64,000 bases of DNA from assembly GCA_964187785.1 (NCBI GenBank), contig OZ076409.1:30072001-30136000 (forward strand), written 5' to 3'. Below the pieces are notes generated by a model, which did not search any database, had not been told where the DNA came from, and was given only the letters and a program-made list of their open reading frames with translations. This DNA is from Amphiscolops sp. MND2022 (Eukaryota). The first letter of the stretch is position 1. Every line of letters starts with the position of its first letter. The translations under genes and the position numbers were made by a program. Shown here in pieces: positions 85-41,825 of the stretch.

Positions 85-330
85 CTACAACGTCATATTG
101 CGACATTTTTTCGTAAAGTGCATCCAGTGTCAATGTCCCTCCCAATTGCTTCAAGTGATTGCCCGTCGTGAGACAACATGCGTGGAGCTGTATCTCAAGT
201 CACCTGCGTATTTGACCACGACGCAGGAGTTTTGACGATGACTATAACGTTTGACCCGTCTGAGAAGCTCAGTCGTTTTCCCGCTTAACATAGGGCCAAT
301 AATTGCTTCAATCGATCCGGATTTGTTCAT
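85..330 (-). CDS. TK1: Thymidine kinase (TK1-like) exon 1; contains two small indels (sequencing errors or pseudogene)
   Basis: ATG at 330 gives [29 protein letters not shown]...[12 protein letters not shown] (TK1 P-loop GPMxSGKxTEL). After a 2-nt deletion it continues HDGQSLEA, and after a 1-nt insertion [16 protein letters not shown], followed by a GTAAG donor at 84. Confidence 0.85.
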
Positions 331-599
331 TGCCTGTTTGCTGCAGAACTCCGCCCAACAGCGTTTATCGTCAAAAAGTGGTATGATAAAAGAAACGGTT
401 CGGTTTCTATTTGAGTCAGGTTTGGTTTTATCAATTCCCAGATCCCTTTGTTTCACTTCCAATAGACAACGTAGAAATGTTAAGTGATTCTTTGCTGATA
501 TTGATTACTAGGATGAATGGAAACTTGAAAGTTCAACTTGAATGGGAAGTTAGTTTGAGTTGTCAAGATAGTTTCAGTTTGTTTATATCACCAGACCAT

Positions 600-1545
600 T
601 CAATCTATCTTTCAATATACAGTACCATATTATAGGTCTAAAATAGTTAGGATCCGATGAGAACGGTCGTTTTGACTTACATTTGATCTATCTTCCATTA
701 TACATTACTATACTATATTTCTAATGTAACTAAGATTCAATGAACAAGGTCGTATCGGACTTATTTCCGATCTAATTTTCAATATACAGTTCCATTCTAT
801 AAGTCTAAAGTAAGTATGATTCGATGAACACTTTCGTATAGGACTTATATTCGATTTATCTTTCCGTATACAGCACAATACGATAGGACTAAAGTAGCTA
901 AGATTCAATGAACACAGCCGTATAGGAATTATATTCGATCTATCTTTCAATATGCAGTACCATTATATAGGTCTAAAGTAGCTAAGATTCGATGAACACG
1001 GTAGTATAGGACTTATATTCGATCTAACTTTCAATACGCAATACTATACTATAATTCTAAAGTAGCCAAGATTCGATGAACACGGTAGTATAGGACTTAT
1101 ATTCGATTTATCTTTCAATTGTCATTTATTCAATACAATACTATAGGTCTAAAGTAGCGATGATTTAACTAACACGATCGTATAAGTTTTATTATCGATC
1201 AATCTTTCAATATACAGTACCATACTGTAGGTCCAAAGTAGCTAAGATTTAATGAACAAAGTGGTGTAGGACTTATATTCGATCTATCTTCCAGTATACA
1301 GTACCATACTATAGGACTAAAGTAGCTGAGATTCTTTGAACACAGCCGTATAGGACTTTTTTTCGATGTATCTTTCAATATACAGTACCCTATATTAGGT
1401 CTAAAGTAGCTAAGATTTGATGAACACTTCCGTATAGGGCTTGTTTTCGATCTATCTTTCAATATACAGTACAATACTATACGACTAAAGTTGCTAAGAT
1501 TCAGTAACACAGTCGTATAGGACTTGTTTGATCTATCTTTCAACA
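600..1545. repeat. 84-bp minisatellite, ~11 diverged copies
   Basis: The GATCTATCTTTCAATATACAGTACC...GGTCTAAAGTAGCTAAGATTC motif recurs at 853, 937, 1021, 1105, 1281, 1365 and 1449. Confidence 0.9.
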
Positions 1546-3681: not shown

Positions 3682-4720
3682 TAGGAGTCGGAAAAAATTT
3701 TCGACTACTTATGCAATCGTGCTGTTTTTTTTTGTTTTTTTTCTCCCGACCTTTTCATGAAAATTTCAAATTTCTCAAAAACTGTCCATACGATTTTCAC
3801 GAAATTTTGCACAGTCATTCTACACCCAAAGGGGCCCCTGCGTGTGCAAAGGCATCAAAATCGTATGGCTGGGATGTGAGAAACATAGCCAAAATTAGCC
3901 CAAAAATGGCCAAAAAACAGACATTTTTCGACTTTTTTCGATTTTCTCAAAAACTGTCCATACGATTCGAACGAAATTTTCTACAGTTATTCTACACCAT
4001 ATTAGAGTCCTATATGTGCAATGGCATCAAAATCGTATGGCTGGGATGTGGGAAACATAGCCAAAATTAGCCCAAAAATGGCCAAAAAACAGCCATTTTT
4101 CGACTTTTTTCGATTTTCTCAAAAACTGTCCATACGATTCGAACGACATTTTCTACAGTTATTCTACACCATATTAGAGTCCTATATGTGCAATGGCATC
4201 AAAATCGTATGGCTGGGATGTGGGAAACATAGCCAAAATTAACCCAAAAATGGCCAAAAAACAGCCATTTTTCGACTTTTTTCGGTTTTCTCAAAAACTG
4301 TCCATACGATTCGAACGAAATTTTCTACAGTTATTCTACACCATATTAGAGTCCTATATGTGCAATGGCATCAAAATCGTATGGCTGGGATGTGAGAAAC
4401 ATAGCCAAAATTAGCCCAAAAATGGCCAAAAAACAGCCATTTTTCGACTTTTTTCGCTTTTCTCAAAAACTGTCCATACGATTCGAACGAAATTTTCTAC
4501 AGTTATTCTACACCATATTAGAGTCCTATATGTGCAATTTCATTAAATTCGTATGGCTGGGATGTGAGAAACATAGCCAAATTTAGCCCCAAAATGGCCA
4601 AAAAAACAGCCATTTTTAGATTTTTTCGATTTTCTCACAAACTGTTCATACGATTCGAACGAAAGCGAGTCAGAAGGAAAAAGACTTACGCCGACTCCTT
4701 TACCGCATATGCGGCTCTGG
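3682..4720 (+). mobile_element. Non-autonomous Helentron/DINE-1-like element (HINE family 1) with an internal 172-bp tandem array
   Basis: 5' subTIR AGGAGTCGG with a short hairpin; 3' subTIR CCGACTCCT (4691) followed by hairpin CCGCATATGCGG and CTCTGG; T-runs on both flanks and no TSD; 172-bp period (ORF starts 4021, 4193, 4365). Confidence 0.75.
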
Positions 4721-6472
4721 TTTTAGTTTGAAATGGGATCTTTCTGGAGCTTGCACTCATTTAATAATTGAAGATTGTTCGGATACTGTTTTTGAGCAAG
4801 TATATCCCCAGTCTAATGCTGAACCAGTACATTGGAGAAATGGATGTTTTTAAATATTCTTAAAAGATCTCAAGTTTTGCTTTTATTGCCAGTAGTAAAT
4901 ATGAGAGCCGATCTGGGTGGGTGCATGGGGACCTCCAACGGAATTCATGGCGCAGTCAAAAAAGAAACGAAGAAATTCACGAGTCAACGACGCTCCGGGT
5001 CTTTTCTACAAGTAGGGAAAATTTGTTCTATTCGGAATAATCAAATACGATCTTAACCTTCAACTTGGAAATGTGGTGACTCGAAAAGGTTTGTTTCCGG
5101 TCTTGCGCGAGAGCAATTTTCACGGATATTTGTCAGCCAGGCTTTTGCCAAAGTTTTGCTGCTATGCTATTATCTTACAGGAACAGTGGCGCCGACTCCA
5201 AATCAAGATTGTAGAAGAACATTCTTTTCCTGCTGAAAGATCCTCATCAATGCTTAATACAGCTGCTCTGATTTCTGAAATTTTTTATCCTGCTAGAGAC
5301 AGTGTGAGAGAACAGCTTTCAGTCTCATCATTGGTTTTCAATCTCAGCTATGACTGCGACGAAAGAATGTTTTTGCCGGGTTCATAGCTCAGAGACCCAG
5401 TTTCACGAAACTTTGTATGCAGTCACCGGAATCAGCTTTCAGGGAAACTTGTTGCCGGCTAGAATTTTTTCGGTTCTATTGACCTTACTGTTTTTTGACA
5501 GTCTAATTTTCATACTAAGGCGATGGAAAATATATATTTACTATGTTTTCAGCATACTATTTTCAACGTGTACATCAGCTACAATAAAACTTGTTTACCG
5601 TAGCACTGATTTCCTTTTCGCTTCAAAATTCTTGACATGTTTTTGTTCAGGAGTTTTCCTACGTTGAAACTTTATCCTCTTCTCCGTTCATTAGACTGAA
5701 AAATTGTTTTACGTATGACTGGAAGACTCTTCGTTCATAAAAAACTCATAATATGAATCTGAACTCATATGAACAGCTGTTGGGTGTCTTTTACATTTGG
5801 ACAAATGAAACTTTATATATACAAAATACACTTGCTCAAGTAATTAGAGGTTGTTTTCTCAAAAAGAGTGTATTAGTTTCAATATTCACAAGCAAAAAGA
5901 TAACACAGAACAAAAATGGTAACAATTGAGTAATGAGATTTTTTCTCAAAAGGAGTGTATTAATTTCAATAATCACAAGCAAAATGATAACACAGAACAA
6001 ATATTGTAAAATGATTGTTGTATTCGTGTTATTCAACACATGAACATATTAGGATGAATATAAATGAATAACAAGGTCAAACTGGTAAATCTTAATCCAT
6101 AAGAAAGAGTTAATGACTTTTTTGTTTTTGTTTCATTTCTAGCTCAGCATTTCACAAACAATTTTATTGCATGTATGGATAAACAAATGGTGAAGTGAGA
6201 CGCAACATAGACTAAACATCACAAGAAAGACATTGAGCACACAAGAAAAATACATAAGCACACAACATCTGAAATTACGCTGCTATTGTTTTGCACATGT
6301 GAGAAGGTATTCACACAAAATGAAAAACTAACATCGAATTCACTTGAAAACGTTGTAGAAAATAGGAATAGAGTATTACATTGAACTGGTTACGCATTAT
6401 GTTGAATTTCAGTCCATGAAAGTAAATAATTTTCAACAGTGAAGTTTGGATGAAAAGGGACACTTCAATTTC

Positions 6473-9400
6473 TCAAATATCCAAGGGATCCGTGTGAATC
6501 ACGTCCGGTAACAACTTTCGCTTGGGACAAAAGAACGATAAGCCTTTCTTCGAATGTTCATAAGTATAAACAGCTTGATTTCTTGCTCTGAATCCTCTGT
6601 TGGTTGAACCAATATTCGTCGCGTTGTCCAAAACTTTTCTGTATTTGTGAAGAGGACCAACGGATGAGTCGTTCAAAAAATGTTTGTTCAATCCTCTACT
6701 GCTGAATTTAATCTTCTTGGTATCTGAATTGTAGCAACAGTATGTTTTGGTACACAAACAAATCATTTCTGTAGCTCGAAACTCTTCTTTGAAGAAACCT
6801 GGCTCCCGTTTATCAAGCTTGCCGTGTAGTACAACATGTCCTGGGGAAACAATTTCCGCTGCTGTCAGCCTCAAATTCATCAATGCAGTCGTCTTTTCTG
6901 ATGCCTGGCCATTCTTCGGCCTTCTTTTGTGTAATGCAATCAGAAATGTTGTTTTCTGCTAGTGCTAAATAGAGTGAGTCTGTGTCCATTTCTATTTCTT
7001 CGAACTTGCTTTGGTCGCAGTGTTTTTGGAAGAAGTTGTAGTAAAGCTCCAACATTCTTAGATTTGCATATTGAAGTATGAAGAAACCAACAACGATTGG
7101 TTCCCGGTGTTCTATTTGTGCTTTAACTAGCTCGACTTCATAGAGAGAATCGTCAATGTAACGGAGTTGCTTGAAAAAAGTACTGACAGCACGGTTTGTC
7201 TTTACTTCATCCAAGTATTTCGTTTCTGTATGTTTGCTACGGTCCATAATTTGGTACCCATAAGAGCTATTACTCAACAGCTTCATAGTCTCAGCAATCA
7301 CTGTAGACTTTTTGTTTTGATCACCGAGTCGTCGGGCCTCAACAACTGATTTAACAAACCCTTTGAAACAATTTCGTGGAAGATATTCAACAAATCTGTG
7401 AATGTTTGTACACTCAAGTCCGAGGCTCATATAGAAATTGAAAAACGGAGTGATCACGCATCCATTTTCCAAATGATAGCTGGAAATCAGCATTTTGCTA
7501 GGTTGTAGCAAGCCATGTTTCTCAGCATATGTCTTCATGTACTCGCCAATATCGTCTCTACTAACGAAAGAATTCTTGAAAATTGGAGGGAAATGCTTGA
7601 AGGCATTTCGCAGACGTTTGGGAACTGACAAGTCACATTGAACATAACCAAAGAGAGTATTATTTTTGATCTCTTGCGTGATTTGGTGTTCCGACAGAGG
7701 TTTGCGATATGGAAAGTTTCTCTTCATCCTTTCTCTGATATCCTTTTCTTCTTTAACTCGTTTCCACCAAAGACATTCCCAAACTTCCACCACTTTGAAT
7801 CCTTTTCCGAGGATATACTTGTTTCGCTCCGCATCATAGGTTTTACGCTCTTTCCAACCTTTCCGAATTTCGATACTTATTTCCTTCTCTTTCTGACAAT
7901 CACAACCATGATAAAAGCACCCCATAGCTTCAAAGACCGTTTGACAATGTCCACAGAATCGGTCGACGCTGAAGTTTTCGATTTTGTGTTGTTTTCCGGT
8001 AGTATAGATACTTTCAGTTGTACATTAAGGCCGAGCATTTTGGAAATGATCCATCACCATGTTCTCAAATCGTCGTCTACGATTTTGGAGAGGTTTGAAT
8101 TTGCCCAACTTAGCATCAGTTTCCCATCTAGTGTACAACCTAGTGGGCATTTCCTGTCACAGGGAGAACGGATAGAGTTGACTAGCGTCTATTCCTACGA
8201 TGGTTCTACACAAATTATCTGTGAATCGAATTTTAGTTTTGCCCACTATTGCTTCACGTGTGAGAACAATAGAAGGTCCTCCCACCATATCAAACCTGAT
8301 TTTCTCCAAAAGATTTTCATCGTTTCTAGTGAATGGGTAAAACTTTGCTGTTGTTGAAGAGTGTAGATAAATAATTGCTAGATTTGGGAGAGTGTAGCCA
8401 AGTTTCAACATTTCTATTTTGCGCTCATGATAGAATTTCATCAATTTTTTTTACAAGGCTCCGAGCGTCGGAACAACATCCTTGTTGTTGTACCACTTGA
8501 GGAAATCTTTGAATGTTCTCATGTTTTCTGACCTCCAGATCTCCAGCTGTAGTTTTCTGTTTATGTGAGGAGCAGTATACATTTTCAATTCTATCAAGGC
8601 TTCTTGTTTAGTATGGCCACTGAAAAGTAGTTTTTCAAAACGAATATAGTCCGCTTCAAGCGGATTGTGATTTCGAAGTTTGTTGAAGAAAGCATTGTAT
8701 GGTGGCAGTGTTTCATGATCAAGTTTTGATGGACAGTCGAACCAATCATAGGGGAAAAAACCTTTCGTCTCGGAAGTATCATATGCCAAAAAGAATCCAG
8801 GTTGGTGGGGCCTCCGATGAAGTTCAGTATATCCATAATTTGAACGTTTCCAAACTTGAAAGATATGAATTGATTTGTTTTTTTGATTACGCGGGGCTCC
8901 GACTTTTTTCGTTGATAAGAATAGGAATAAGATAAGATTTGATGAGATTGAGATCATATCTAGAACTGTTGAAACCAAAAACAGGCAATGTTGATATATA
9001 CTCTTCCAAACTTTTCTGCAGATCAAGTAAGTTTTTCTTCTTTTTGTTCGAAAACTTCATGCTAAATTCCGAAGGAGAAAGAGAAAAGTTTTTAGTTCCT
9101 TCTGTTTGATCAGAAGGCAACATTGCATCAGATAAACTTGCTATTTTATCACATAAAGCAGTTGATACATCTTTGAAAAGCATTCGCATATCTTTTTCAC
9201 TTTTAGCGGCCAATGTCTGTAGAGCATCCACAAAGTGTTCTACTAGTTTTCTTGGTTCAGACTTGCATATGAAAATAGGTTTGTAGAGCAAATTGGATGA
9301 AATTGACACTGAAATGGGTTCATGCCTACCTACCCATGTGGTCAGATTGTTTTCGACAGAGTTGTTTTCAGCAACGCAGATAGATTCAAAATCGAAAACT

Positions 9401-11082
9401 GCCAGATTGTCAAAAAGACGAATGTTTTCAGGCACTAATATATCAAACTGGGAAAGTTTTTCGAATACTGTCTCTTTCAAACTATATGCGGAGCAAGGGT
9501 ATTTGTTTTTCACCAACTTATCACAAACTGGAGAATGTCGACGCAAGTTTGAATGCTTTGAGAAAAACTTGTTGCAATTATCACATCGGAAGGAATTGGA
9601 AACACCGTTGATATCCTTCGTGTAACAAATGTGATTATTATACCTCAGGAGTTTGATGCTCTTAGAGTATTTGTTTATACTCCGATGTGATAACACACCA
9701 ATTAGTTTTTCGTTATCGAGTTCGATATCGTATATGCTGATATTCAACTCCGTTAGATCTTCAATATCTTTGACAGATTCCAAATTTATACCTTGGATTT
9801 CCGCAACATCTATTTTACTATGTTCAACAAATCGATGGAAAAGATTTGCAGTCTGCTCCTCCAAGTTGTTGTTGCTTCTTAGGTGGAAAGATACAGCTCT
9901 CAGTAAACAAAAGCAATCTTCATACAATTGTTTCGAAGAATTGCTCATCAGAGAATTCATCTTTTTTCTAATGATGCATCTTGGTATCTCCAGGCTGCAG
10001 CAACCCATAGGAACTTCCTCGAGAGTTGAAGCAAAAACTGTCATGTTTGTTGCAAAGGCGAATTTCCATTTTGTATTTGGCCGTTCTCGAGTTGCACTTT
10101 CAACAAAATCAGTCAGAGACAGTTCCGTAATGATATTGTTCAGGTCTTCTCCATTGCTCAAAATGCGAGCTGTGTTGAAAACTAGTGAATTTTCATGAGC
10201 ATAATAGTAACGATAATCACCAGTCTCTATTTTGCGGAGGACAAAACCCAAGCTGATATTCAAATTGGCTTCATTGTCAAGTTTGGAAAAGACTGTTCGG
10301 AGCTTATCAACTATCAGTTACGGATTCAATTCAGCTACAGCAAAGTTGAAGACCTTATGTTTCCCTCGAAACGATTCTGAGTCAATAAGAAAGTGCTTCA
10401 CACTGTTGAGTTCGTCCCGAAGTTCTTGATTTGCTTGATCGCCCATGATTGTGTCAAAGTCAATTTCGATGGGAACGGATTCGGAGGTCTGTTCCTTGAT
10501 CTTGTGAAGAGTCTCTTTTACATGCGAAGTGTGTTGAAGCTGTGAAAGTTGAGCTTACACTCACTGCATGTGTTTATTTGAGGAAACTGCAAGAAATTAT
10601 TGAGAGGTTTTTTCACGTTTTTGCACATGACGGAGTCAATGTGCATTGCAGTCCAGCTAAGTAAGTTTTTTTTCCACTATAGTCAACTTCATAATGAGCG
10701 CTTTTTAGAAAAACGCCAAAACCCCAGAGAGATTCGAACCTGCAGCCTCCCGATTGCACGGCATAAGTGTTGACCACTGTGCCATAGGGACGTTATTGAA
10801 CAAAGTTGAACTGTTGAATATATACGCATGCGATTAAAATAATATATATACACATATTGAAATAATCGGAGTCTTCGTCATGTGTTGCGAAGCACCGCTT
10901 CGCCTCTGTGTTGACTTTGTGATAATTCAGTTTCTTCTCAGTTTTCGCAGCAAATTTAGGACATTCTGGACAAAAAAGAATGCCATTTTTACATGATTTT
11001 TCTGGCGTGAAATGTGTTTTCTAATCAGTTTTTTCCCACAGTTATCGCTTTCAATTGATTTGTTTCTATCAAGCGACGGCAT
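6473..11082 (-). pseudogene. Protein-primed family B DNA polymerase (Polinton pPolB), left copy; frameshifted and interrupted by a HINE
   Basis: Split over ORFs 8887-10263, 8451-9026, 8157-8444, 6813-7925 and 6473-6883. Exonuclease motifs VFDFES, GFNSSRYD, WYNNKDV. Polymerase motifs GGP...IDASQLYP, KLLSNSSYG, EMDTDSLY. N-terminal C2H2 fingers. Confidence 0.9.
10622..10910 (+). mobile_element. HINE family 2 (~290 bp, tRNA-like core) inserted into the left pPolB
   Basis: subTIR CACATGACG/CGTCATGTG, 5' hairpin TGCACAT..ATGTGCA, 3' hairpin GCGAAGC-ACC-GCTTCGC then CTCTGTG. Absent from the right arm (empty T-run site near 14285). Other copies at 31753 and 33308. Confidence 0.8.
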
Positions 11083-12365
11083 TTCCAGACAAGAATGTTA
11101 GTCTTCTTCACCAAACTACAAGCATACGGTAATTCTCGTTTCATTCACTGGCTTGAGGGAAATACTGCCGAACTGTTGTTAGAGTGGGTCGTGGTACAGA
11201 GTGACAGCTGATTGAGCGTCCTGTTTATCGCTCTTCTCAAACAATTTTGAGGTTTTTCATAATTTCCCATCTCGAAAAACCCATCACAGGAAAAAAATGA
11301 ATTTCAAAGGACTCTTAAATAGTTTTTGGTTTTTCAGTGCCATAATACGCGATCGCTAGTTTTTCAACCTTTCAAATACCTTACATCAATTATACTGCTT
11401 TTAAAACGATCTTCATAGCTTTTCAGTAGCATGGAGAAATATCAACAACAGGATATTGCTGATAAGCGTGGTGTCAATGAGATTTAATCCGCAATTGAGC
11501 TCTAAAATCAGAGTGATTAGATCGTAATGTGAATTTGAAATGTGAAATCCACTATTAAACGGTAGTTAGCAATATTTATCACATCGACAAAACTGATGCC
11601 AATGATTGAGTAGGTGTGAATATTCGCAGTTATTTGACAAATCCACTATAATTCTTGTTGAAAATTATGTAATTGTAGTAAACAGACTAACAACAACGTC
11701 TAGTTTTGAGGTCTTGAAAGAGACGCCGACAGGAATGTTTCTCATTGTTCATTACACCGCAGTAGTCTCACAGTCTCACTTGCGTGGAGCGTGTCTGCTA
11801 AGGACTTTCCTATGAGTCAGTTCAATAAAACAAGATGCACGTTTGCTTTTGGTGAAAATGTGCCAGCGTGGTACTTGAAAGTGTCGCCGACGGTTTGTAA
11901 TCAGTTGCGTTCTTGGTTAATCTCGATCAGATTGCGTGCGCGTGGGGCACAGTACTTAAAATTCTTTGAAGTTATGGTTTTCTTTTATCGTGTCTTTGTA
12001 ATTGACATAACGTAAACAAGAATTTCACGCAGAGTAGACATAAAAGGGACACCGACGTTTTGCAAATGAGTTTGAATTGTCGATTGCAACATGTTTCTCA
12101 GTTGAATGTGCAAAATCGTACCAATAACACTTGAGGTTGCTTCGTACAGGAGTGTCGAACTGATTTTGTACTGTTTCCATGCTTGTGGACATGTTTACTT
12201 TAGTCTTCCCTAATACTTTTTCAACCTAAATTTATCTTTCCACATAAAATTTTTATGGTTTTCTACAGTAATGTGCAACAAGTTTCATGAAGTATTTTGA
12301 TGACATTGAGTTGCAGTGACTGTTTGACGTGAAATATACATCTCAATGATGAATACCCCCACAAT

Positions 12366-12645
12366 ATGCAGTAATTCATCAGTGAGAGACTAGCTGAGCA
12401 TGATAAGATATAAATCCTCAATTTTTGAAGTAACATTTAGTTTGACGTTATCAAACCATTCTTGTAACAACGAAATGCAGTGAATCATCAGTGAGGGAGT
12501 AGCTGAGCAGGATTATATATATACTTTTGAATATATATATATATTTTTGAAGAAAGATTTCGGTTGACGCTATCAAACATTGTTATTTTCCGAGTCAAAC
12601 GATGAAACAAGACTAGAATTGGTTCCAGAAACCTAAAACACGGCA
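12366..12645. other. Central non-palindromic spacer of the foldback Polinton, with two diverged ~110-bp direct repeats
   Basis: Arm symmetry stops at CCCCCACAAT (12365) and ATTGTGGGGG (12646). ATGCAGT..TCATCAGTGAG..TAGCTGAGCA...TTGACG.TATCAAAC occurs twice (12366, 12475). Confidence 0.8.
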
Positions 12646-14116
12646 ATTGTGGGGGTTTTCATCATTGAGATGTTTATTTCACGTCAAACAGTCACTGCAA
12701 CTCAATGTCATCAAACTACTTCATGAAACTTAATGCACATTACTGTAGAAAACCATGAAAATTTTATGTGAAAAGATAAATTTAGGTTGAAAAAGTATTA
12801 GGGAAGACTAAAGTAAACATGTCCACAAGCATGGAAACAGTACAAAATCAGTTCGACACTCCTGTACACAGGTAATCCCTTTTAATTCAGGTGATAAATG
12901 ACTAGCCTCATTAACAATGGATCGCATCATACCATTGTTGGAAACTCTCAAACGACGAAATCGGGCCCTAAAATGAGTGGAACAAATCGTGTAGTGTCGC
13001 CGAAAAGTTCTCAAAAGTATATTCTATTTCACAATTGGAAGAGCCCCTCGAGATCAGAATTTCAATGCATGCTCACAAAAACAATCTAGACTGACGTGAC
13101 TAGCTAAAATGTAGTTCTTATGTTCCAGAGGCTGTTTCATGTTTGTACAGCGCTGCTTCGCCCTTACCTAGGTGCGGGTTGCCACAGATGAATACTAAGC
13201 TAGCAAGCACACCCACGCACTTTTACTGCAAGGAATGTTTTAGTGTGTGAATTACATGTAATATTGAAAAGAAAGTCTGGCTCTCATGTTCTTCCAGCTC
13301 GATAACTTGTTAATCTTTCTGATCTAAAAAATATATCTTGTAAAGTTGTAACTCAGTATGAAGCAACCTCAAGTGTTATTGTGTACGATTTTGCACATTC
13401 AACTGAGAAACATGTTGCAATCGACAATTCAAACTCATTTGCAAAACTTCGGTGTCCCTTTTATGTCTACTCTGCGTGAAATTCTTGTTTACGTTGTGTC
13501 AATTACAAAGACACGATAAAAGAAAAACATAACTTCGAAGAATTTCAATTACTGTGCCCCACGCGCACGCAAATCTAATCGAGATTAATCAAGAACGCAA
13601 CTGATAACAAACCGTCGGCGACACTTCCAAGTACCACGCACCGTTTAATAGTGGATTTCACATTTCAGATTCACATTACGATCTAATCACTCTGATTTTA
13701 GAGCTCAATTTCGGATTAAATCTCATTGACACCACACTTATCAGCATTATCCTGTTGTTGATATTTCTTCCTGCTACTGAAAAGCTATGAAGATCGTTTT
13801 AAAAGCAGTATAATTGATGTAAGGTATTTGAAAGGTTGAAAAACTAGCGATCGAGTATTATGGCACTGAAAAACCAAAAACTATTTAGGAGTCCTTTGAA
13901 ATTCATTTTTTTCCTGTGATGGGTTTTTCGAGATGGGAAAATATCAAAAACCTCAAAATTGTTTGAGAAGAGCGATAAACAGGACGCTCAATCAGCTGTC
14001 ACTCTGTACCACGACCCACTCTAACAACAGTTCGGCAGTATTTCCCTCAAGCCATTGAATGAAACGAGAATTACCGTATGCTTGTAGTTTGGTGAAGAAG
14101 ACTAACATTCTTGGAA

Positions 14117-17100
14117 ATGCCGTCTCTTGATAGAAACAAATCAATTGAGTGCGATAACTGTGGGCAAAAGTGGTTAGAAAACCAAACGTCACAAAAAAAT
14201 CATGTAAAAATGGCATTCTTTTTTTGTCCAGAATGTCCTAAATTTGCTGCGAAAACTGACGAGAAACTGAATTATCACAAAGTCAAAAAACACGAGAAAA
14301 ATTCTCTCAATAATTGTTTCACATGCAGTGAGTGTAGGCTCAACTTTCACAGCTTCTACACACTTCGCATGCATGAAGAGACTTTTCACAAGATCAAGGA
14401 ACAGACCTCCGAATCCGTTCCCATCGAAATTGACTTTGGCACAATCATGGGCGATCACGCAAATCAAGAACTTCGGGACGAACTCGACAGTGTGAAGCAC
14501 TTTCTTATTGACTCAGAATCGTTTCGAGGGAAACATAAGGTCTTCAACTTTGCTATAGCTGAATTGAATCCGCAACTGATAGTTGATAAGCTCCGAACAG
14601 TCTTTTCCAAACTTGACAATGCAGCCAAGGTAAATTTTAGCTTGGGTTTTGTCCTCCGCAATATAGAAACTGGTGATTATCGTTACTATTATGCTCATGA
14701 AAATTCGCTAGTTTTCAACACAGCTCGAATTTTGAGCAATGGAGAAGACCTGAACAATTACGGAACTGTCTCTGACTGATTTTGTTGAAAGTGCAACTCT
14801 AGAACGGCCAAATACAAAATGGAAATTCGCCTTTGCAACAAACATGACAGTTTTTGCTTCAACTCTCGAGGAAGTTCCTATGGGTTGCTGCAGCCTGGAG
14901 ATACCAAGATGCATCACTAGAAACACAAAGATTAATTGTCTGATGAGCAATTCTTCGAAACAATTGTATGAAGATTGTTTGTGTTTACTGGGAGCTGTAT
15001 CTTCCACCTAACAGGCAACAACAAATTGGAGGAGCAGACTGCAAATCCTTTCCATCGATTTGTTGAACATAGTAAAATAGATGTTGCGGAATTCCAAGGT
15101 ATAAATTTGGAGTCTGTCAAAGATATTGAAGATCTCACGGAGTTGAAGATCAGCGTATACAATATCGAACTCGATAACGAAAAACTAATTGGTGTGTTAT
15201 CACATCGGTGTATAAACAAATACTCTAAGGGCATCCAACTCCTGAGGTATAATAATCACATTTGTTACACGAAGGATATCAACGGAGTTTCCAATTCCTT
15301 CCGATGTGATAATTGCAACAAGTTTTTCTCAAAGCATTCAAACTTGCGTCGACATTCTCCAGTTTGTGATAAGTTGGTGAAAAACAAATACCCTTGCTCC
15401 GCATATAGTTTGAAAGAGACAGTATTCGAAAAACTTTCCCAGTTTGATATATTAGTGCCTGAAAACATTCGTCTTTTTGACAATCTGGCAGTTTTCGATT
15501 TTGAATCTATCTGCGTTGCTGAAAACAACTCTGCCGAAAACAATCTGACCACATGGGTAGGTAGGCATGAACCCATTTCAGTGTCAATTTCATCCAATTT
15601 GCTCTACAAACATATTTTCATATGCAAGTCTGAACCAAGAAAACTAGTAGAACACTTTGTGGATGCTCTACAGACATTGGCCGCTAAAAGTGAAAAATGC
15701 TAAAAGTGATATGCTAAAAGTGATAAACATTGGCCGCTAAAAGTGATATGCGAATGCTTTTCAAAGATGTATCAACTGCTTTATGTGATAAAATAGCAAG
15801 TTTATCTGATGCAATGTTGCCTTCTGATCAAACAGAAGGAACTTAAAACTTTTCTCTTTCTCCTTCGGAATAAGCATGAAGTTTTCGAACAAAAAGAAGA
15901 AAAACTTACTTGATCTGCAGAAAAGTTTGGAAGAGTATATATCAACATTGCCTGTTTTTGGTTTCAACAGTTCTAGATATGATCTCAATCTCATCAAATC
16001 TTATCTTATTCCTATTCTTATCAACGAAAAAAAGTTGGAGCCCCGCGTAATCAAAAAGACAAATCAATTCTTTTTCAAGTTTGGCAACGTTTAAATGACG
16101 GATATACTGAACTTCATCGGAGGCGCCACCACCCTGGATTCTTTTTTAAAGGCATATGATACTTCCGAGACGAAAGCTTTTTTTCCCTATGATTGGTTCG
16201 ACTGTCCATCAAAACTTGATCATGAAACACTGCCACCATACAATGCCTTCTTCAACAAACTTCGAAATCACAATCCGCTTGAAGCGGACTTCATTCGTTT
16301 TGAAAAACTACTTTTCAGTGGCCATACTAAACAAGAAGCCTTGATAGAAATGAAAATTTCTACTGCTCTTCTCACAGGAACAGAAAACTACAATTATCTG
16401 CTGGAGATCTGGAGGTCAGAAAACATGAGAACAATCAAAGAATTCCTCAAGTGGTAGAACAATGATGTTTCGACAGGATTTTGTTCCGACGCTCGAAGCC
16501 TCGCAAAAAATGATGAAGTGCTATCATGAGCGCAAAATAGACATGTTGAAACTTGGCTACACTCTCCCAAATCTAGCAAATATTTATCTACACTCTTCAA
16601 CAACAGCAAAGTTTTACCCATTCACTAGAAACGATGAAGATCTTTTGGAGAAAATCAGGTCTGATATGGTGGGAGGACCTTCTGTTATTTTCAAACGTGA
16701 AGCAATAGTGGGCAAAACTAAAATTCGATTCACAGATAATTTGTGTCGAACCATCATAGGAATAGACGCTAGTCAACTCTATCCGTTCTCCATGTGTCAG
16801 GAAATGCCCACTGGGTTGTACACTAGATGGGAAATTGATGCTAAGTTGGGAAAATTCAAAGCTCTCCAAAATCGTAGACGACGATTTGTGAACATGGTGA
16901 TGGATTATTTCCAAAATGCTTGGCCTGAATGTACAATTGAAAGTCTCTACACTACCGGAAAACAACACAAAATCGAAAACTTCAGCGTCGACGGATTCTT
17001 CAGAGAAAGGATGAAGACAAACTTTCCATATCGCAAACCTCTGTCGGAACACCAAATCATGCAACAGATCAAAAATAATACTCTCTTTGGTTATGTTCAA

Positions 17101-18272
17101 TGTGCCTTGTCAGTTCCCAAATGTCTGCGAAATGCCTTCAAGCATTTCCCTCCAATTTTCAAGAATTCTTTCGTTAGTAGAGACGATATTGGCGAGTACA
17201 TGAAGACATATGCTGAGAAACATGGCTTGCTACAACAACCTAGCAAAATGCTGATTTCCAGCTATCATTTGGAAAATGGATGCGTGATCACTCCGCTTTT
17301 CAATTTCCATATGAGCCTCGGACTTGAGTGTACAAACATTCACAGATTTGTTCAATATCTTCCACGAAATTGTTTCAAAGGGTTTGTTAAATCAGTTGTT
17401 GAGGCCCGACGACTCGGTGATCAAAACAAAAAGTCTACAGTGATTGCTGAGACTATGAAGCTGTTGAGTAATAGCTCTTATGGGTACCAAATTATGGACC
17501 GTAGCAAACATACAGAAACGAAATCCTTGGATGAAGTAAAGACAAACCGTGCTATCAAATGTACTTTTTTCAAGCAACTCCGTTACATTGACGATTCTCT
17601 CTATGAAGTCGAGCTTGTTAAAGCACAAATAGAACACCGGGAACCAATCGTTGTTGGTTTCTTCATACTTCAATATGCAAAGCTAAGAATGTTGGAGCTT
17701 TACTACAACTTCTTCCAAAAATACTGCGACCAAAGCAAGTTCGAAGAAATAGAAATGGACACAAACTCACTCTATTTAGCACTAGCAGAAAACAACATTT
17801 CTGATTGCATTACACAAGAGAAGGCCGAAGAGTGGTCATGCATCAGAAAAGATGACTGCATTGATGAATTTGAGGCTGACAGCAGCAGAAATTGTTTCCC
17901 AGGACATGTTGTACTACTCACGCCAAGCTTGATAAACGGGAGCCAGGTTTGTTCAAAGAAGAGTTTCGAGCTACAGAAATGATTCGTTTGTGTAGCAAAA
18001 CATACTGTTGCTACAATTCAGATACCAAGAAGATTAAATTCAGCAGTAAAGGATTGAACAAACATTTTTTGAACGACTCATCCGTTGGTCCTCTTCACAA
18101 ATACAGAAAAGTTTTGGACAACGCGACGAATATTGGTTCAACCAACAGAGGATTCAGAGCAAGAAATCAAGCTGTTTATACTTATGAACATTCGAAGAAA
18201 GGCTTATCGTTCTTTTGTCCCAAGCGAAAGTTGTTACCGGACGTGATTCACACGTATCCCTTGGATATTTGA
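14117..18272 (+). pseudogene. Protein-primed family B DNA polymerase (Polinton pPolB), right copy; frameshifted
   Basis: ORFs 14111-14779 (C2H2 fingers), 14975-15703, 15876-16094, 16095-16457, 16462-17982 and 17892-18272. Same motifs as the left copy, but catalytic DTDS has become DTNS and there is a 216-bp in-frame deletion. Confidence 0.9.
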
Positions 18273-20261
18273 GAAATTGAAGTGTCCCTTTTCATCCACA
18301 CTTCACTGTTGAAAATTATTTACTTTCATGGACTGAAATTCAACATAATGCGTAACCAGTTCAATGTTATACTCTGTTCCTATTTTCTACAACGTTTTCA
18401 AATGAATTCGATGTTAGTTTTTCATCTTGTTTGAATACCTTCTCACATGTGCAAAACAATAGCAGCGTAATTTCAGATGTTGTGTGCTTATGTATTTTTC
18501 TCGTGTGCTCAATGTCTTTCTTGTGATGTTTAGTCTATGTTGCGTCTCACTTCACCATTTGTTTATCCATACATGCAATAAAATTGTTTGTGAAAGTCTG
18601 AGCTAGAAATGAAACAAAAACAAAAAAGTCATTAACTCTTTCTTATGGATTAAGATTTACCAGTTTGACCTTGTTATTCATTAATATTCATCCTAAAATG
18701 TTCATGTGTTGAATAACACGAATACAACAATCATTATACTATTTTTGTTCTGTGTTATCATTTTGCTTGTGATTATTGAAATTAATACACTCCTTTTGAG
18801 AAAAAATCTCATTACTCAATTGTTACCATTTTTGTTCTGTGTTATCTTTTTGCTTGTGAATATTGAAACTAATACACTCTTTTTGAGAAAACAACCTCTA
18901 ATTACTTGAGCAAGTGTATTTCGGATATATGAAGTTTCATTTGTCCAAATGTAAAAGATACCCAACAACTGTGCATATGAGTTCAGATTCATATTATGAG
19001 TTTTTTATGAACGAAGAGTCTTCCAGTCATTCGTAAAACAATTTTTCCGTCTAGTGAACGGAGAAGAGGATAAAGTTTCAATATAGGAAAAACTCCTGAA
19101 CAAAAACATGTCAAGAATTTTGAAGCGGAAAGGAAATCAGTGCTACGGTAAACAAGTTTTATTGTAGCTGATGTACACGTTGAAAATGGTAAGCTGAAAA
19201 CATAGTAAATATATATATTCCATCGCCTTAGTATGAAAATTAGACTGTCAAAAAACAGTTAGGTCACAGAACCAAAAAAATTCTAGCCGGCAACGTGTTT
19301 CCCTGAAAGCTGATTCCGCTGACTGCATACAAAGTTTCGTGAAACTGAGTCTCTGAGCTATAAACCCGGCAAAAACATTCTTCCGTCGCAGTCATAGCTG
19401 AGATTGAAAACCAATGATGAGACTGAAAGCTGTTCTCTCACACTGTATCTAGTAGGATAAAAAATTTCAGAAATCAGAGCAGCGGTATTAAGCATTGATG
19501 AGGATCTTTCAGCAGGAAAAGAATGTTCTTCTACAATCTTGATTTGGAGTCGGCGCCACTGTTCCAGTAAGATAAAAATAGCATAGCAGCAATACTTTGG
19601 CAAAAGTCTGGCTGACAAATATCCGTGAAAATTGCTCTCGCGCAAGACCGGAAACAAACCTTTCGAGTCACCACATTTCCAAGTTGAAGGTTGAGATCGT
19701 ATTTGATTATTCCGAATAGAACAAATTTTCCCCACTTTTAGAAAAACCCGGAGCGTCGTTGACTCGTGAATTTCTTCGTTTCTTTTTTGACTGTGCCATG
19801 AATTCCGTACGTTAAAAATCCGTTAATCTCCCAGTTCACTGTTCACTCTCAGGACTCCGAAAAAAATTCAATTTTCAAACATGTGAAGATAGAGGGGGCG
19901 GGGGGGGGTGTGCTGACTGTTTTTTTTTATCAGAGGTTTTTTTCTGATTCGACGATTAGGAATGTGATTCATTCATTTCCACGCAACTTGTATTGAGTTG
20001 AAAAATTTTTTTGGACACCCCCCTTGGCTTGGGGACCCAACACTATATGTCCAAACTACTTGGGGACCTCAATTGATTTATTGATCTATACGTAATCTTT
20101 ATACATGGATGTCCCCATGCACCCACCCAGATCGGCTCTCATATTTACTACTATTGCCTCTTACTGCTCAATGTTTTAGCAGTACAGTGCTATTCGGACA
20201 TAAGATTGCCTGCCTAGTTCGGGTTTAAATGATGGCTTTTTAACCGAAGGACTTCATCCAC

Positions 20262-31450: not shown

Positions 31451-31752
31451 TAAGAGCGCTACAGATGATAGGAGCAAACCAATCAACAAATGGCGGAACA
31501 TGTGGAGTGATTCTAGCTTCAATTTATTGAGTTGCCGGTTGTTGATCTCCCCATTGGAGCCCACCTGTCCAGACGAGCTTGGTGCCACCTGAACAGGCTA
31601 CGCACGGTCTATGGCCGCTTTAGAACCTGCCTGGAGAAATGGGGCCGCATTGATGACCCTACTTGCATCTGCGGTGAAGCCCCAGATTTCTAGTTCAATC
31701 AACTTGAAAAAAGTTAAGCTGTCATCGAGGCTTCTGGTTTGAATGTTCTTTT

Positions 31753-32047
31753 TGCACATGACGAAGTCAATGTGCATTGCAGTCCAGCTAAGTAAGTTTT
31801 TTTCCACTATAGTCAACTTCATAATGAGCGCCTTTTAGACAAAAGCCAAAACTCCTGAGAGATTCGAACCTGCAGCCTCCCGATTGCACGGCATAAGTGT
31901 TGACCACTGTGCCATAGGGACGTTATTGAACAAAGTTGAACTGTTTTGAATATATACGCATGCGATTGAATATATACGATTTTTCGGCATTCGTCTAGCC
32001 ATGATTCGTCTTCGTCATGTGTTGCGAAGCACCGCTTCGCCTCTGTG
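31753..32047 (+). mobile_element. HINE family 2 copy; empty sites visible in paralogous sequence
   Basis: The flanks rejoin as GAATGTTCTTTTAGACAGTTGAAC, which is seen uninterrupted at ~32816 and ~36517; no TSD. Confidence 0.85.
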
Positions 32048-32319
32048 TAGACAGTTGAACGTGTGTGTTCGATATCAAAAATTATCGGCATCATGATTAT
32101 TTTCCGGCCATTTTTCCATATGAGAAACAAGCCCCCCCCAAACAGCCGAGCACATACTGTCACAATGTAAAATTCTCAAACCCCCCTCTGGACAAGAAGG
32201 AGTAGTGAGGCCCGACCTATCAGTTCAATGGTTGGAAAACGAGTTGCTGGACCTTTGAGATGACGACACACGAAAGAGAGAGAATGAGTGCAATTTCAGT
32301 ACATTCTATGACTGGGATT

Positions 32320-32855: not shown

Positions 32856-33307
32856 AAAATTATCGGCATCATGATTATTTTCCAGCCATGTTTCCATATG
32901 AGAAACAAGCCGGGAACGGCCAAAGTCGGCGCTTTATCGAAGGCTCAAAAAGCGCAATGTTTTTAGTCGGCTCATTTTAGTAGAAAATGTGCCCGACTCT
33001 TACAGTGGGTAGTTTTTTAGACGCGTAAGGTCCACTTTTTTGTTCATTTGTTCAACAACGTCAAACCTCAACAACTTCAACCCTAAACAATTCGAACCTC
33101 AGAAGCGCGTCCAAAACGAAAAGAAAAAACAAAACAGACGTCCAGAACCTCGAAAACACACTAAGGATCCCCCATAGCCCCACTTTTTTTTCGGCACTAT
33201 GACACTTTTTGAAACTTTTTGGATTGCACTAAAGGGTCCCCCCTTCATTTGTTTCGATATTTTGTAACACAATGGATGTCAAAAAATCGCAAAGGTTCCC
33301 CCCTTTT

Positions 33308-33595
33308 TGCACATGACGAAGTCAATGTGCATTGCAGTCCAGCTAAGTAAGTTTTTTTTCCACTATAGTCAGCTTCATAATTAGCGCTTTTTAGGAAAAA
33401 GCCAAAACCCCAGAGAGATTCGAACCTGCAGCCTCCCGATTGCACGGCATAAGTGTTGACCACTGTGCCATAGGGACGTTATTGAACAAAGTTGAACTGT
33501 TGAATTTATACGCATGCGATTAAAATAATATATATACGCATATTAAAATAATCGATGTCTTCGTCATGTGTTGCGAAGCACCGCTTCGCCTCTGT
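33308..33595 (+). mobile_element. HINE family 2 copy nested in a HINE family 3 element (~32963-33795)
   Basis: Same termini and tRNA-like core as 10622-10910; inserted in a T-run. Confidence 0.8.
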
Positions 33596-37704: not shown

Positions 37705-40700
37705 ATGCAATCGTGCTGTTTTTTTTCTCCCGACCTTTTCATGAAAATTTCAAATTTCTCAAAAACTGTCCATACGATTTTCACGAAATTTTGCACAGTC
37801 ATTCTACACCCAAAGGGGCCCCTGCGTGTGCAAAGGCATCAAAATCGTATGGCTGGGATGTGAGAAACATAGCCAAAATTAGCCCAAAAGTGGCCAAAAA
37901 ACAGCCATTTTTCGACTTTTTTCGATTTTCTCAAAAACTGTCCATACGATTCGAACGAAATTTTCTACAGTTATTCTACACCATTTTAGAGTCCTATATG
38001 TGCAATGGCATCAAAATCGTATTGCTGGGATGTGAGAAACATAGCCAAAATTAGCCCAAAAATGGCCAAAAAACAGCCATTTTTCGACTTTTTTTCGATT
38101 TTCTCAAAAACTGTCCATACGATTCGAACGACATTTTCTACAGTCATTCTACACCATATTATGGTCCTTTATGTGCAATTTCATTAAATTCGTATGGCTG
38201 GGATGTGAGAAACATAGCCAAATTTAGCCCAAAAATGGCCAAAAAACGTCATTTTTCGATTTTTTCGATGTTCTCACAAACTGTTCATACGATTCGAACG
38301 AAAGCGAGTCAGAAGGAAAAGGACTTAAGCCGACTCCTTTACCGCATATGCGGCTCTGGTTTTTTCCGTCAGACCAAATAGCTCATACTGTGTGTACGCT
38401 AAAGGGGGCCTTTGGGGTTTTTGTGCATTATGCACTTTTACCAAAAGCACTCAGTACTTGATTTTGAACGCATCCAAAGCCTCTAACATGAAGTGCAAAA
38501 CTCAGAAGGGTCCCCCTTTCCAATTTTTTTCCAGAACTGTGATACTTTCTCCGCCTTTTTCAGCTTTCCGAAATTTTTTTAATGTCTCCAAAGGGCCCCC
38601 CTTCAATTTTTTTGATATTTTGCATAAAACTCGATTTTCAAAAAGCCCAAAGGGTCCCCCTTTTACAATTTTAAAATTGTTGCGCTTTTTGACGGAGCGC
38701 ATATCACGGAGCTTCTCGGTTTTCAGAATAAACTGGACAGGTAACGTTTATTTTTCTTCTTGACGGACTTCTCAAAATTCACTGTTTCACGATCAACAAA
38801 GGCATAAACAACGAATACGCTTGAGTTGGTGGGAGCAGATCTCATTGTTTATTTGTGGCTAATTCCGTAGCCTCATCCACCGGGACCATAGTGAAAAGGC
38901 TGATAACGTCGAAAAAATCTAACGCTTCAAGCAACTGGATCTGACTCAGCGGCTGTGTAACTAAGTTCGGCTTGTCTCAATGAAGCCAGCAGGATTTTTA
39001 GAGAGAATGTCGCACGGCTTATTTGCAAGGTTTTGATAGCTAGTGCCGGACATCGAGACAATTGGCCTTAAGGGAATTCCGTTATGTGCTAATGGCAACC
39101 CCTACGGTTTGGCACCACAGGAGCTGTTATCTTCATACCATTGTTCCGAAATCTCTCGTTTCTTCGCCAGTCTCCACAAACTTTGTTGAATCTATCCTGC
39201 TCGTATATGTATGCATTAATTTTTTTAGGAGTCGGAAAAATTTTTCGACTACTTATGCAATCGTGCTGTTTTTTTTGTTTTTTTTTCTCCCGACCTTTTC
39301 ATGAAAATTTCAAATTTCTCAAAAACTTTCCATACCATTTTCACGAAATTTTGCACAGTCATTCTACACCCAAAGGGGCCCCTGCGTGTGCAAAGGCATC
39401 AAAATCGTATGGCTGGGATGTGAGAAACATAGCCAAAATTAGCCCAAAAGTGGCCAAAAAACAGCCATTTTTCGACTTTTTTCGATTTTCTCAAAAACTG
39501 TCCATACGATTCGAACGAAATTTTCTACAGTTATTCTACACCATTTTAGAGTCCTATATGTGCAATGGCATCAAAATCGTATTGCTGGGATGTGAGAAAC
39601 ATAGCCAAAATTAGCCCAAAAATGGCCAAAAAACAGCCATTTTTCGACTTTTTTCGATTTTCTCAAAAACTGTCCATACGATTCGAACGAAATTTTTTAC
39701 AGTAATTCTACACCATATGAGCGTCCTATATGTGCAATGGCATCAAAATCGTATGGCTGGGATGTGAGAACCATAGCCAAAATTAGCCCAAAAATGGCCA
39801 AAAAACAGCCATTTTTCGACTTTTTTCGATTTTCTCAAAAACTGTCCATACGATTCGAACGACATTTTCTACAGTCATTCTACACCATATTATGGTCCTT
39901 TATGTGCAATTTCATTAAATTCGTATGGCTGGGATGTGAGAAACATAGCCAAATTTAGCCCAAAAATGGCCAAAAAACGTCATTTTTCGATTTTTTCGAT
40001 GTTCTCACAAACTGTTCATACGATTCGAACGAAAGCGAGTCAGAAGGAAAAGGACTTAAGCCGACTCCTTTACCGCATATGCGGCTCTGGTTTTTTCCGT
40101 CAGACCAAATAGCTCATACTGTGTGTACGCTAAAGGGGGCCTTTGGGGTTTTTGTGCATTATGCACTTTTACCAAAAGCACTCAGTACTTGATTTTGAAC
40201 GCATCCAAAGCCTCTAACATGAAGTGCAAAACTCAGAAGGGTCCCCCTTTCCAATTTTTTTCCAGAACTGTGATACTTTCTCCGCCTTTTTCAGCTTTCC
40301 GAAATTTTTTTAATGTCTCCAAAGGGCCCCCCTTCAATTTTTTTGATATTTTGCATAAAACTCGATTTTCAAAAAGCCCAAAGGGTCCCCCTTTTACAAT
40401 TTTAAAATTGTTGCGCTTTTTGACGGAGCGCATATCACGGAGCTTCTCGGTTTTCAGAATAAACTGGACAGGTAACGTTTATTTTTCTTCTTGACGGACT
40501 TCTCAAAATTCACTGTTTCACGATCAACAAAGGCATAAACAACGAATACGCTTGAGTTGGTGGGAGCAGATCTCATTGTTTATTTGTGGCTAATTCCGTA
40601 GCCTCATCCACCGGGACCATAGTGAAAAGGCTGATAACGTCGAAAAAATCTAACGCTTCAAGCAACTGGATCTGACTCAGCGGCTGTGTAACTAAGTTCG

Positions 40701-41825
40701 GCTTGTCTCAATGAAGCCAGCAGGATTTTTAGAGAGAATGTCGCACGGCTTATTTGCAAGGTTTTGATAGCTAGTGCCGGACATCGAGACAATTGGCCTT
40801 AAGGGAATTCCGTTATGTGCTAATGGCAACCCCTACGGTTTGGCACCACAGGAGCTGTTATCTTCATACCATTGTTCCGAAATCTCTCGTTTCTTCGCCA
40901 GTCTCCACAAACTTTGTTGAATCTATCCTGCTCGTATATGTATGCATTAATTTTTTTAGGAGTCGGAAAAATTTTTCGACTACTTATGCAATCGTGCTGT
41001 TTTTTTTTTGTTTTTTTTTCTCCCGACCTTTTCATGAAAATTTCAAATTTCTCAAAAACTTTCCATACGATTTTCACGAAATTTTGCACAGTCATTCTAC
41101 ACCCAAAGGGGCCCCTGCGTGTGCAAAGGCATCAAAATCGTATGGCCTGGATGTGAGAAACATAGCCAAAATTAGCCCAAAAGTGGCCAAAAAACAGCCA
41201 TTTTTCGACTTTTTTCGATTTTCTCAAAAACTGTCCATACGATTCGAACGAAATTTTCTACAGTTATTTTACACCATATTAGAGTCCTATATGTGCAATG
41301 GCATCAAAATCGTATGGCTGGGATGTGAGAAACATAGCCAAAACTAGCCCAAAATTGGCCAAAAAACAGCCATTTTTCGACTTTTTTCGATTTTCTCAAA
41401 AACTGTCGTTACGATTCGAATGAAATTTTCTACAGTTATTCTACACCATATTAGAGTCCTATATGTGCAGTGGCATCAAAATCGTATGGCTGGGATGTGA
41501 GAAACATAGCCAAAATTAGCCCAAAAATGGCCAAAAAACAGCCATTTTTCGATTTTTTTCGATTTTCTCAAAAACTGTCCATACGATTCGAACGAAATTT
41601 TCTACAGTCATTCTACACCATATTATGGTCCTTTATGTGCAATTTCATTAAATTCGTATGGCTGAGATGTGAGAAACATAGCCAAATTTAGCCCAAAAAT
41701 GGCCAAAAAACAGTCATTTTTTGATTTTTTCGATTTTTTCACAAACTATTCATACGATTCGAACGAAAGCGAGTCAGAAGGAAAAAGACTTAAGCCGACT
41801 CCTTTACCGCATATGCGGCTCTGGT
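37705..41825 (+). repeat. Tandem duplication with 1731-bp period: HINE1 - X - HINE1 - X - HINE1
   Basis: Identical ORFs at 38392/40123, 38502/40233 and 39062/40793. HINE-1 copies at ~37705-38359, 39226-40090 and 40957-41825. Confidence 0.92.

Follow-up and report, generated by a model that had tools for sequence, protein, structure and literature searches.

We analyzed a stretch of 64,000 nucleotides (the window) from Amphiscolops sp. MND2022 (assembly GCA_964187785.1, contig OZ076409.1, positions 30,072,001 to 30,136,000), which contains a palindromic element related to Polintons. This element spans 15,262 bp (4891-20152), starts with AGTAGT, ends with ACTACT and is flanked on both sides by the duplication ATTGCC. 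Each of its two inverted arms holds the remains of one outward-pointing gene for a protein-primed type B DNA polymerase (pPolB). In all these points, the original prediction, made from the letters of the window, was correct. Coordinates are positions in the window, while C1, C2 and so on denote contigs of the same 1.07-Gb genome. The element is composed of the following features (TSD, target-site duplication; TE, transposable element; TP, terminal protein; ZnF, zinc finger):

4885..4890, plus strand: left TSD, ATTGCC (sequence inspection)
4891..12365, plus strand: left arm, starting with AGTAGT; about 298 bp of terminal sequence are missing after 4937
6476..11082, minus strand: left pPolB pseudogene, outward, with the order ZnF-TP-vOTU-ZnF-exonuclease-polymerase and a Vsr-like insert; carries stops, frameshifts and a TE (tblastn)
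7739..7954, minus strand: pPolB piece of 216 bp in the left arm only (deleted on the right)
10618..10912: unrelated repeat of about 295 bp in the left pPolB, inserted after integration; further copies at 31749-32048 and 33304-33595
11083..12365: inner left arm, non-coding, upstream of pPolB; 67-83% identity to the equivalent region of the young subfamily
12366..12645: central spacer (loop) of 280 bp, containing a direct repeat in degenerate form; shows homology to other group I centres
12646..20152, plus strand: right arm, with ACTACT at its end
14117..18272, plus strand: right pPolB pseudogene, outward, with independent lesions (tblastn match at 14117-18269)
19809..20106: subterminal family sequence of 298 bp in the right arm only; not a TE
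20083..20152, minus strand: terminal ~70 bp, shared between the element and families A and B of intact Polintons; putative origin and end recognised by the integrase
20153..20158, plus strand: right TSD, ATTGCC (sequence inspection)

The expected reverse-complement symmetry around a 280-bp spacer was recovered by self-BLAST of the window as six blocks, which run from the ends to 12365 and 12646. The arms differ by 3.26% (215 substitutions in 6,598 paired bases), each has private deletions near the centre, and the repeat at 10618-10912 is the sole one-sided TE. Together with the complete lack of N in the window, these independent changes uphold the earlier argument that the palindrome is no artefact of assembly. 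Two head-to-head insertions would have left a second pair of terminal inverted repeats (TIRs) or TSDs at the centre; none was found, and the terminal 100 bp match the two ends only. The segment at 19809-20106 was rejected as a TE, because it is present in both arms of a sister copy on C3 and was deleted from the left arm of the window element. With respect to pPolB, eight stops occur in one arm only and none is common to both. Within its family, the window copy is dead and has decayed neutrally since its insertion.

In the young copies of this family, which are introduced below, an open frame of about 1,445 amino acids (aa) is found in 6/8 arms. The one copy of it that was translated retains C2H2 zinc fingers, a Vsr-like insert and motifs which we take to be those of the exonuclease and the polymerase. 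The Pfam model DNA_pol_B_2 matches a fragment of the window pPolB (E=2e-5, under the curated cut-off); the full polymerase was not recognised by Pfam, and a sequence search of solved structures with pPolB returned only zinc fingers and the Vsr endonuclease among the best 60 matches. The predicted structure of residues 105-400 of a young pPolB (mean pLDDT, the predicted local distance difference test, of 88) matches the pPolB N-termini of adintovirus, MELD virus and mavirus (E 5e-11 to 1e-4), while its best PDB matches are OTU domains, which are weak (E about 0.01). In this model, the strand and helix order of the first domain appears to fit the D1/terminal-protein description given in the accessible part of bioRxiv 2024.03.18.585575. 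The elements thus share with Polintons a protein-primed PolB with N-terminal TP and vOTU, as well as (AGT)2//(ACT)2 ends and a 6-bp TSD.

The remaining hallmarks of Polintons are missing. In agreement with the original prediction, no gene for an integrase, ATPase, protease or capsid protein was detected: four resident Polinton families provided 18 non-polymerase proteins as queries, including four integrases, and these gave 0 matches at E<0.05 against the window element and 34 further stretches, and one ATPase match sits 4 kb outside an element on C6. Accordingly, the palindromes encode neither an integrase nor the ATPase, protease and capsid proteins, whether major or minor, of Polintons. Beside pPolB, the young copies are without any other long open reading frame (ORF), and 0/7 small ORFs of a young arm match group II or family A as a possible second conserved gene. 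Short tblastn matches within group I were rejected as a conserved gene, as they reflect DNA similarity. Polinton TIRs measure 100-1,500 bp and enclose a unique core with several genes, whereas the arms of these elements extend over ~7-8 kb and leave a unique centre of 0.3-0.5 kb.

When the genome was searched with the terminus, with the polymerase and with the centres, a family emerged rather than a one-off rearrangement, which had also been considered. These searches score the best candidates only (in one case the best 122 of 2,727), and all copy counts are lower bounds. We aligned 16 copies with two inverted pPolB arms at separate loci, 13 of them without an internal assembly gap. A perfect 6-bp TSD is present in 11/16, all different, whereas one copy shows a 5/6 match and four could not be called (ends decayed or outside the retrieved sequence):

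Aligned copies: window; C3:57993564; C12:57642871; C2:43354930; C9:18616725; C5:67990977; C3:80510090; C2:91632872; C9:33095092; C4:35564563; C4:35545891; C4:~35849760; C6:61604541; C4:~37235k; C2:~77568k; C4:40474232
Perfect TSDs: ATTGCC, GACTAC, GACGAT, GACGAA, AATACC, CATGAT, ACTATT, GTTAAT, AATGCC, GACCTG, ACGGTT

The identity of the pPolB arms ranges from 99.8% to ~89.5% across copies, indicating that insertions have been going on for long and continued until very recently; in young copies the arms are 0.07-0.22% apart. Gapless, little-rearranged copies measure 13.2-16.7 kb, compared with 17.4 kb for intact family A. In the youngest copies (C2, C9 and C5a) a 200-N gap interrupts the centre, and such gaps also lie at or near the centre of half copies on C11, C4 and C10. 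About nine further loci are partial, gap-broken or rearranged (C11, a split copy on C4, C10, C12:54.4M, C2:54.1M, C2:41.8M, C3:56.6M, C5:36.2M and C9:56.7M), and seven additional group II centre matches were found besides the retrieved loci.

On C4, a right end followed by ATACTG (C4:21603273) and a left end preceded by ATACTG (C4:21721991) lie 118 kb apart in reversed order, with a scaffold gap beside each; they probably stem from one young insertion, the segment around it having been mis-ordered or duplicated. Group II palindromes form a local cluster at C4:35.54-35.59 Mb and 35.85 Mb, where two are ~600 bp apart and one member contains an inserted hAT transposase and is internally duplicated. 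At C2:54123001-54151356, a complete-looking family C Polinton and a DUF1759 piece, a domain which is presumably of retrotransposon type, adjoin a truncated left palindrome arm. Decayed, tandemly rearranged arrays of pPolB or termini of this clade are found at C9:56726001-56746000, C5:738001-787500 and C1710:1-10000. Outside this genome, a metagenome scan yielded two inverted pPolB arms in 0/74 loci, a weak negative given that contigs are mostly short and assemblers collapse palindromes, and two scans of viral contigs found no locus. Six metagenome contigs of 9-11 kb carry distant pPolB relatives with no match to the resident structural genes; these could be divergent Polintons or collapsed half-palindromes.

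To place the family, we compared its polymerases with those of the intact Polintons residing in the same genome. A DNA tree was built from 36 pPolB stretches with family B as the root, and in it the palindromes fall into one clade (FastTree support 1.00) that is sister to family A and comprises group I, including the window element, and group II. A tree of 35 proteins agrees with the sister position. Only 1/81 of the best database proteins is closest to the palindromic clade, namely a 99.7% match to the young subfamily. The pPolB of family A is ~56% identical to that of the clade and no direct parent was found; the palindromes do share their ends with families A and B, both of them intact.

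Family A is exemplified by C7:23857505-23874923 (17.4 kb, TIR 427 bp, TSD GATGCT). It encodes pPolB, an A32-like ATPase, an rve integrase and a capsid-like ORF (recognition slightly below threshold; atlas score of 0.98 to a cluster in which 30% of the members are double jelly-roll proteins), and shows a weak adenain match (E=0.007). Its integrase has at least 141 matches in the genome, many of them open and 99-100% identical, and lies within 25 kb of 67/81 family-A-like pPolB matches vs 0/27 matches of the palindromic clade. The terminal 70 bp were compared for families A, B and D: four palindromic termini are identical to families A and B at 44-52/70 positions, which 0/200 shuffles equalled. 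Family D was rejected as a helper, since two of its termini showed no match over these 70 bp. As a side observation, family A elements are mosaic, with inner and integrase regions 92-97% identical and pPolB/TIR types ~71% alike, a pattern in the sequences which suggests that the polymerase end is exchanged between elements.

Several lines of evidence show that the palindrome is inherited as a unit. On the DNA tree, the arms of the same element are sisters in 12/12 older elements having both arms, and in the window subfamily 34 sites group arms by element, with 2 in conflict. At the same time, centres and loops are homologous within each group, across subfamilies ~17% apart in pPolB DNA, and C12, C2 and C9 have in common a one-sided central deletion and 4/4 innermost arm-type differences. 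It follows that the whole palindrome was inherited, while its outer arms were repeatedly homogenised. The regions upstream of the family A and B pPolB gave no match to the palindrome centres.

The polymerase of the palindromic clade evolved under purifying selection, as seen between distant subfamilies. The ratio of non-synonymous to synonymous substitution rates (dN/dS) of five distant-subfamily pairs is 0.10, 0.14, 0.17, 0.21 and 0.28, where the value of 0.10 was obtained between the groups at dS 1.6. For close pairs including decayed copies we obtained 0.44, 0.60 and 0.77, and between the arms of seven elements 0.78-1.06; dN is somewhat inflated by frameshifted rows. Consistently, changes common to both arms comprise 243 synonymous and 334 non-synonymous ones, vs 182 and 651 for arm-private changes (p=6e-16).

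How such palindromes arise is illustrated by two foldbacks of family A. The element at C3:15126077-15138651 (12.6 kb, TSD AAGGTA) consists of the family A polymerase end and a 4.15-kb inverted copy that is 99.5% identical. Its counterpart at C1:57044650-57059283 (14.6 kb, TSD GTTAAT, arms 97.9% identical) is a mirror palindrome of the capsid/integrase end, with two inverted ATPase-integrase-capsid-protease modules and without pPolB; its identity to family A is 94-98%, and part of it is broken. Its 60-bp loop has a junction on a 6-bp inverted repeat (microhomology) of the parent, which fits intramolecular template switching. Both look like recent, independent, single events, and a lasting lineage was founded here by the polymerase-end geometry only. 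This is what would be expected if the retained TP-pPolB makes a palindrome self-replicating.

Altogether, we propose that a snap-back genome turned into a stable, self-replicating satellite lineage which depends on a helper for integration, and assign this interpretation a probability of about 75%. The palindromes are self-complementary and carry one parental end twice, as snap-back genomes do. Of the predicted copy-back defective genome, the foldback origin stood, given the two recent family A foldbacks, while a fresh copy-back of a normal Polinton did not. Likewise, the single endogenised defective genome that had been envisaged gave way to an old palindromic lineage with many subfamilies and a polymerase under purifying selection. 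The window element itself is no Polinton, as it is without integrase and virion genes, and works like a Polinton-derived satellite.

With regard to the mechanism, the polymerase of an ancestral Polinton may have changed to another template at a short inverted repeat within the element during protein-primed strand-displacement replication. The polymerase end would thereby have been copied twice and the integrase/packaging/capsid half lost. Two younger foldbacks exemplify this kind of origin. Retaining both origins and the full TP-vOTU-pPolB polyprotein, the palindrome could prime and copy itself as linear DNA, as its gene content and the selection on it suggest. A displaced strand might snap back to a hairpin of ~8 kb with a duplex-origin end, which would keep the arms alike. 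Insertion occurs in trans, as had been foreseen, since the copies have 6-bp TSDs without an integrase of their own; the retroviral-like integrase would come from co-resident intact Polintons with the shared terminal ~70 bp, and by their terminal sequences family A or B is the most likely donor. Speculatively, the palindromes may also be packaged into helper capsids. Their size of 13.2-16.7 kb, compared with 17.4 kb, fits a constraint of roughly 10%, which is discussed for Mavericks in the accessible text of PMC8097293. However, shorter elements with TSDs were integrated too, namely a 4.7-kb deletion derivative on C8 (perfect TSD GATACC) and the 12.6-kb family A copy-back. That we are dealing with a true polintovirus satellite, i.e. 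a self-replicating, polymerase-only palindrome which by its doubled structure has a snap-back origin and a near helper size, packaged and integrated by co-resident Polintons and with synonymous sites near saturation, is a tentative proposal with somewhat less than an even chance.

Several observations weigh against a self-replicating satellite lineage and feed competing explanations. The centres of groups I and II have a single 47-bp match in common, so two origins are possible. Both-arm changes between near neighbours are 61-75% non-synonymous and thus near neutral (five comparisons), shared ends are all that points to the helper, and the best-candidate searches may leave room for an intact parent inside the clade. 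Combined with the clear recurrence of foldbacks in family A, the barely homologous centres and near-neutral changes would suit recurrent dead-end foldbacks, where each subfamily, or groups I and II each, derived from a lost or unsampled intact Polinton of the clade and selection acts on these parents. We consider this unlikely, as the homology of centres and loops within a group requires inheritance of the palindrome, the one-sided deletion and all four arm-type differences were passed on across C12, C2 and C9, and no structural gene occurs in any clade member checked. Furthermore, a stop is common to both arms in 6/12 elements, arm differences are clustered in 8/12 (dispersion p<0.01), and the separate insertions C5a and C3c have the same frameshift near the pPolB end in all four arms, at a site that is also broken in single arms of other copies. 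Either polymerase-dead copies ride on others in trans, or arms convert in the chromosome; dependence on the own polymerase is not absolute.

The shared stops, the clustered differences and the frameshift found at two loci would also be compatible with a non-autonomous DNA transposon residing in the chromosome, in the form of a giant foldback resembling a miniature inverted-repeat transposable element. Such an element would be moved by a helper, its arms gene-converted and its polymerase a slowly decaying passenger or common good. The palindromes do move in trans with ends shared with an autonomous partner, the identity of which is deduced. However, this explanation is improbable, because a dN/dS of 0.10 at dS 1.6, together with frames of 1,445 aa that are open, requires the own polymerase to have been selected over a long time; rather than having no functional coding capacity, young copies have an open pPolB, with dN/dS of 0.10-0.28. 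The mirror palindrome on C1 raises the idea of a bipartite Polinton, in which a polymerase-only palindrome is paired with a polymerase-less capsid/integrase segment. This is very unlikely: the mirror palindrome is the sole close opposite-strand pair, as judged by eye, among the 141 integrase matches listed, it is a partly broken, 94-98% identical relative of family A, and family A normally has its own pPolB (67/81). Finally, the 200-N gaps of the youngest copies and half copies might hint at an assembly or read-foldback artefact, or at two head-to-head insertions. This hardly seems credible, considering that the window and 12 other aligned copies are without internal gap, that arms are up to 10% different, with private indels and TEs, and that the copies have different flanks, perfect TSDs and no inner terminus.

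In the surroundings of the window element, an array of 172-bp units lies ~230 bp from its left end. Tandem arrays with units of 84 bp, 172 bp and 1,051 bp occupy window positions 598-1543, 3843-4664, 37755-41768 and 56600-63998. A thymidine kinase-like exon at 151-504 (minus strand; Pfam TK, E=4e-15) is probably part of a host gene.

A self-replicating satellite lineage would have several consequences. In most hosts, neither replication nor virions of Polintons are known; according to the available text of PMC8097293, particles were not observed. Foldbacks with template-switch junctions and integrase-type TSDs are fossils of a strand-displacement phase outside the chromosome. A polymerase-only lineage under selection implies that Polintons have parasites of their own and that their integrase acts in trans on shared ends. 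Because both arms of an insertion are sister sequences, their divergence offers a relative clock over 7 kb. The mirror capsid/integrase palindrome on C1 might be raw material for a segmented Polinton. With a true satellite, animal genomes would harbour a class of sub-viral agents invisible to standard pPolB-plus-integrase screens. In their accessible parts, vertebrate and nematode Polinton surveys select on pPolB beside integrase, so such palindromes may be widespread and overlooked.

The polymerase-coding palindromic Polinton lineage is new here: no palindromic pPolB-only Polintons were found in a literature coverage that excludes most subscription journals, Repbase Reports and supplementary element tables. 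As described in the accessible texts, Polintons/Mavericks (adintoviruses) have AGTAGT ends, a 6-bp TSD, a size of 15-17 kb and a TP-vOTU-pPolB polyprotein like the palindromes (PMC8097293; bioRxiv 2024.03.18.585575; PMC8502044). Unlike them, the palindromes have two copies of pPolB and are without integrase, ATPase, protease and capsid, and their TIRs of ~7.5 kb cover almost the whole element, compared with 100-1,500 bp in Polintons (available text of bioRxiv 2023.08.22.554363). Butterfly polintons have gene-bearing TIRs of ~2 kb, i.e. TIRs expanded over genes as in the palindromes; however, the genes doubled there are hexon and adenain, in polintons that are described as full-length, whereas the palindromes keep the polymerase only. 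The same preprint, in its accessible part, mentions polB-less variants (bioRxiv 2025.02.07.637071). In C. elegans, pPolB-plus-TIR remnants without integrase have been described, as far as the published excerpts go. These two are the nearest published cases.

Palindromes are also known from other protein-primed replicons. The pGKL1 hairpin and palindrome plasmids are palindromic replicons of this kind. Similarly, phi29 without its single-stranded DNA-binding protein is reported to make short palindromic TP-DNAs (accessible text of PMC2175359). Both are laboratory or short-lived forms, whereas the palindromes described here integrate, diversify into subfamilies and have a polymerase under selection. 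Linear invertron plasmids such as pAL2-1 and kalilo resemble them in TIRs, panhandle intermediates and little content beyond replication genes, as outlined in the available part of PMC1864894. These plasmids are, however, mitochondrial, have a single polymerase and no integrase-type 6-bp TSD, and are not palindromic throughout. Snap-back or copy-back defective viral genomes and satellite viruses, in the descriptions at hand, resemble the palindromes in genome geometry and in their dependence on a helper. Whereas classical defective genomes give up the replicase and use a borrowed one, the palindrome retains its own and relies on others for integration, and perhaps for the virion.

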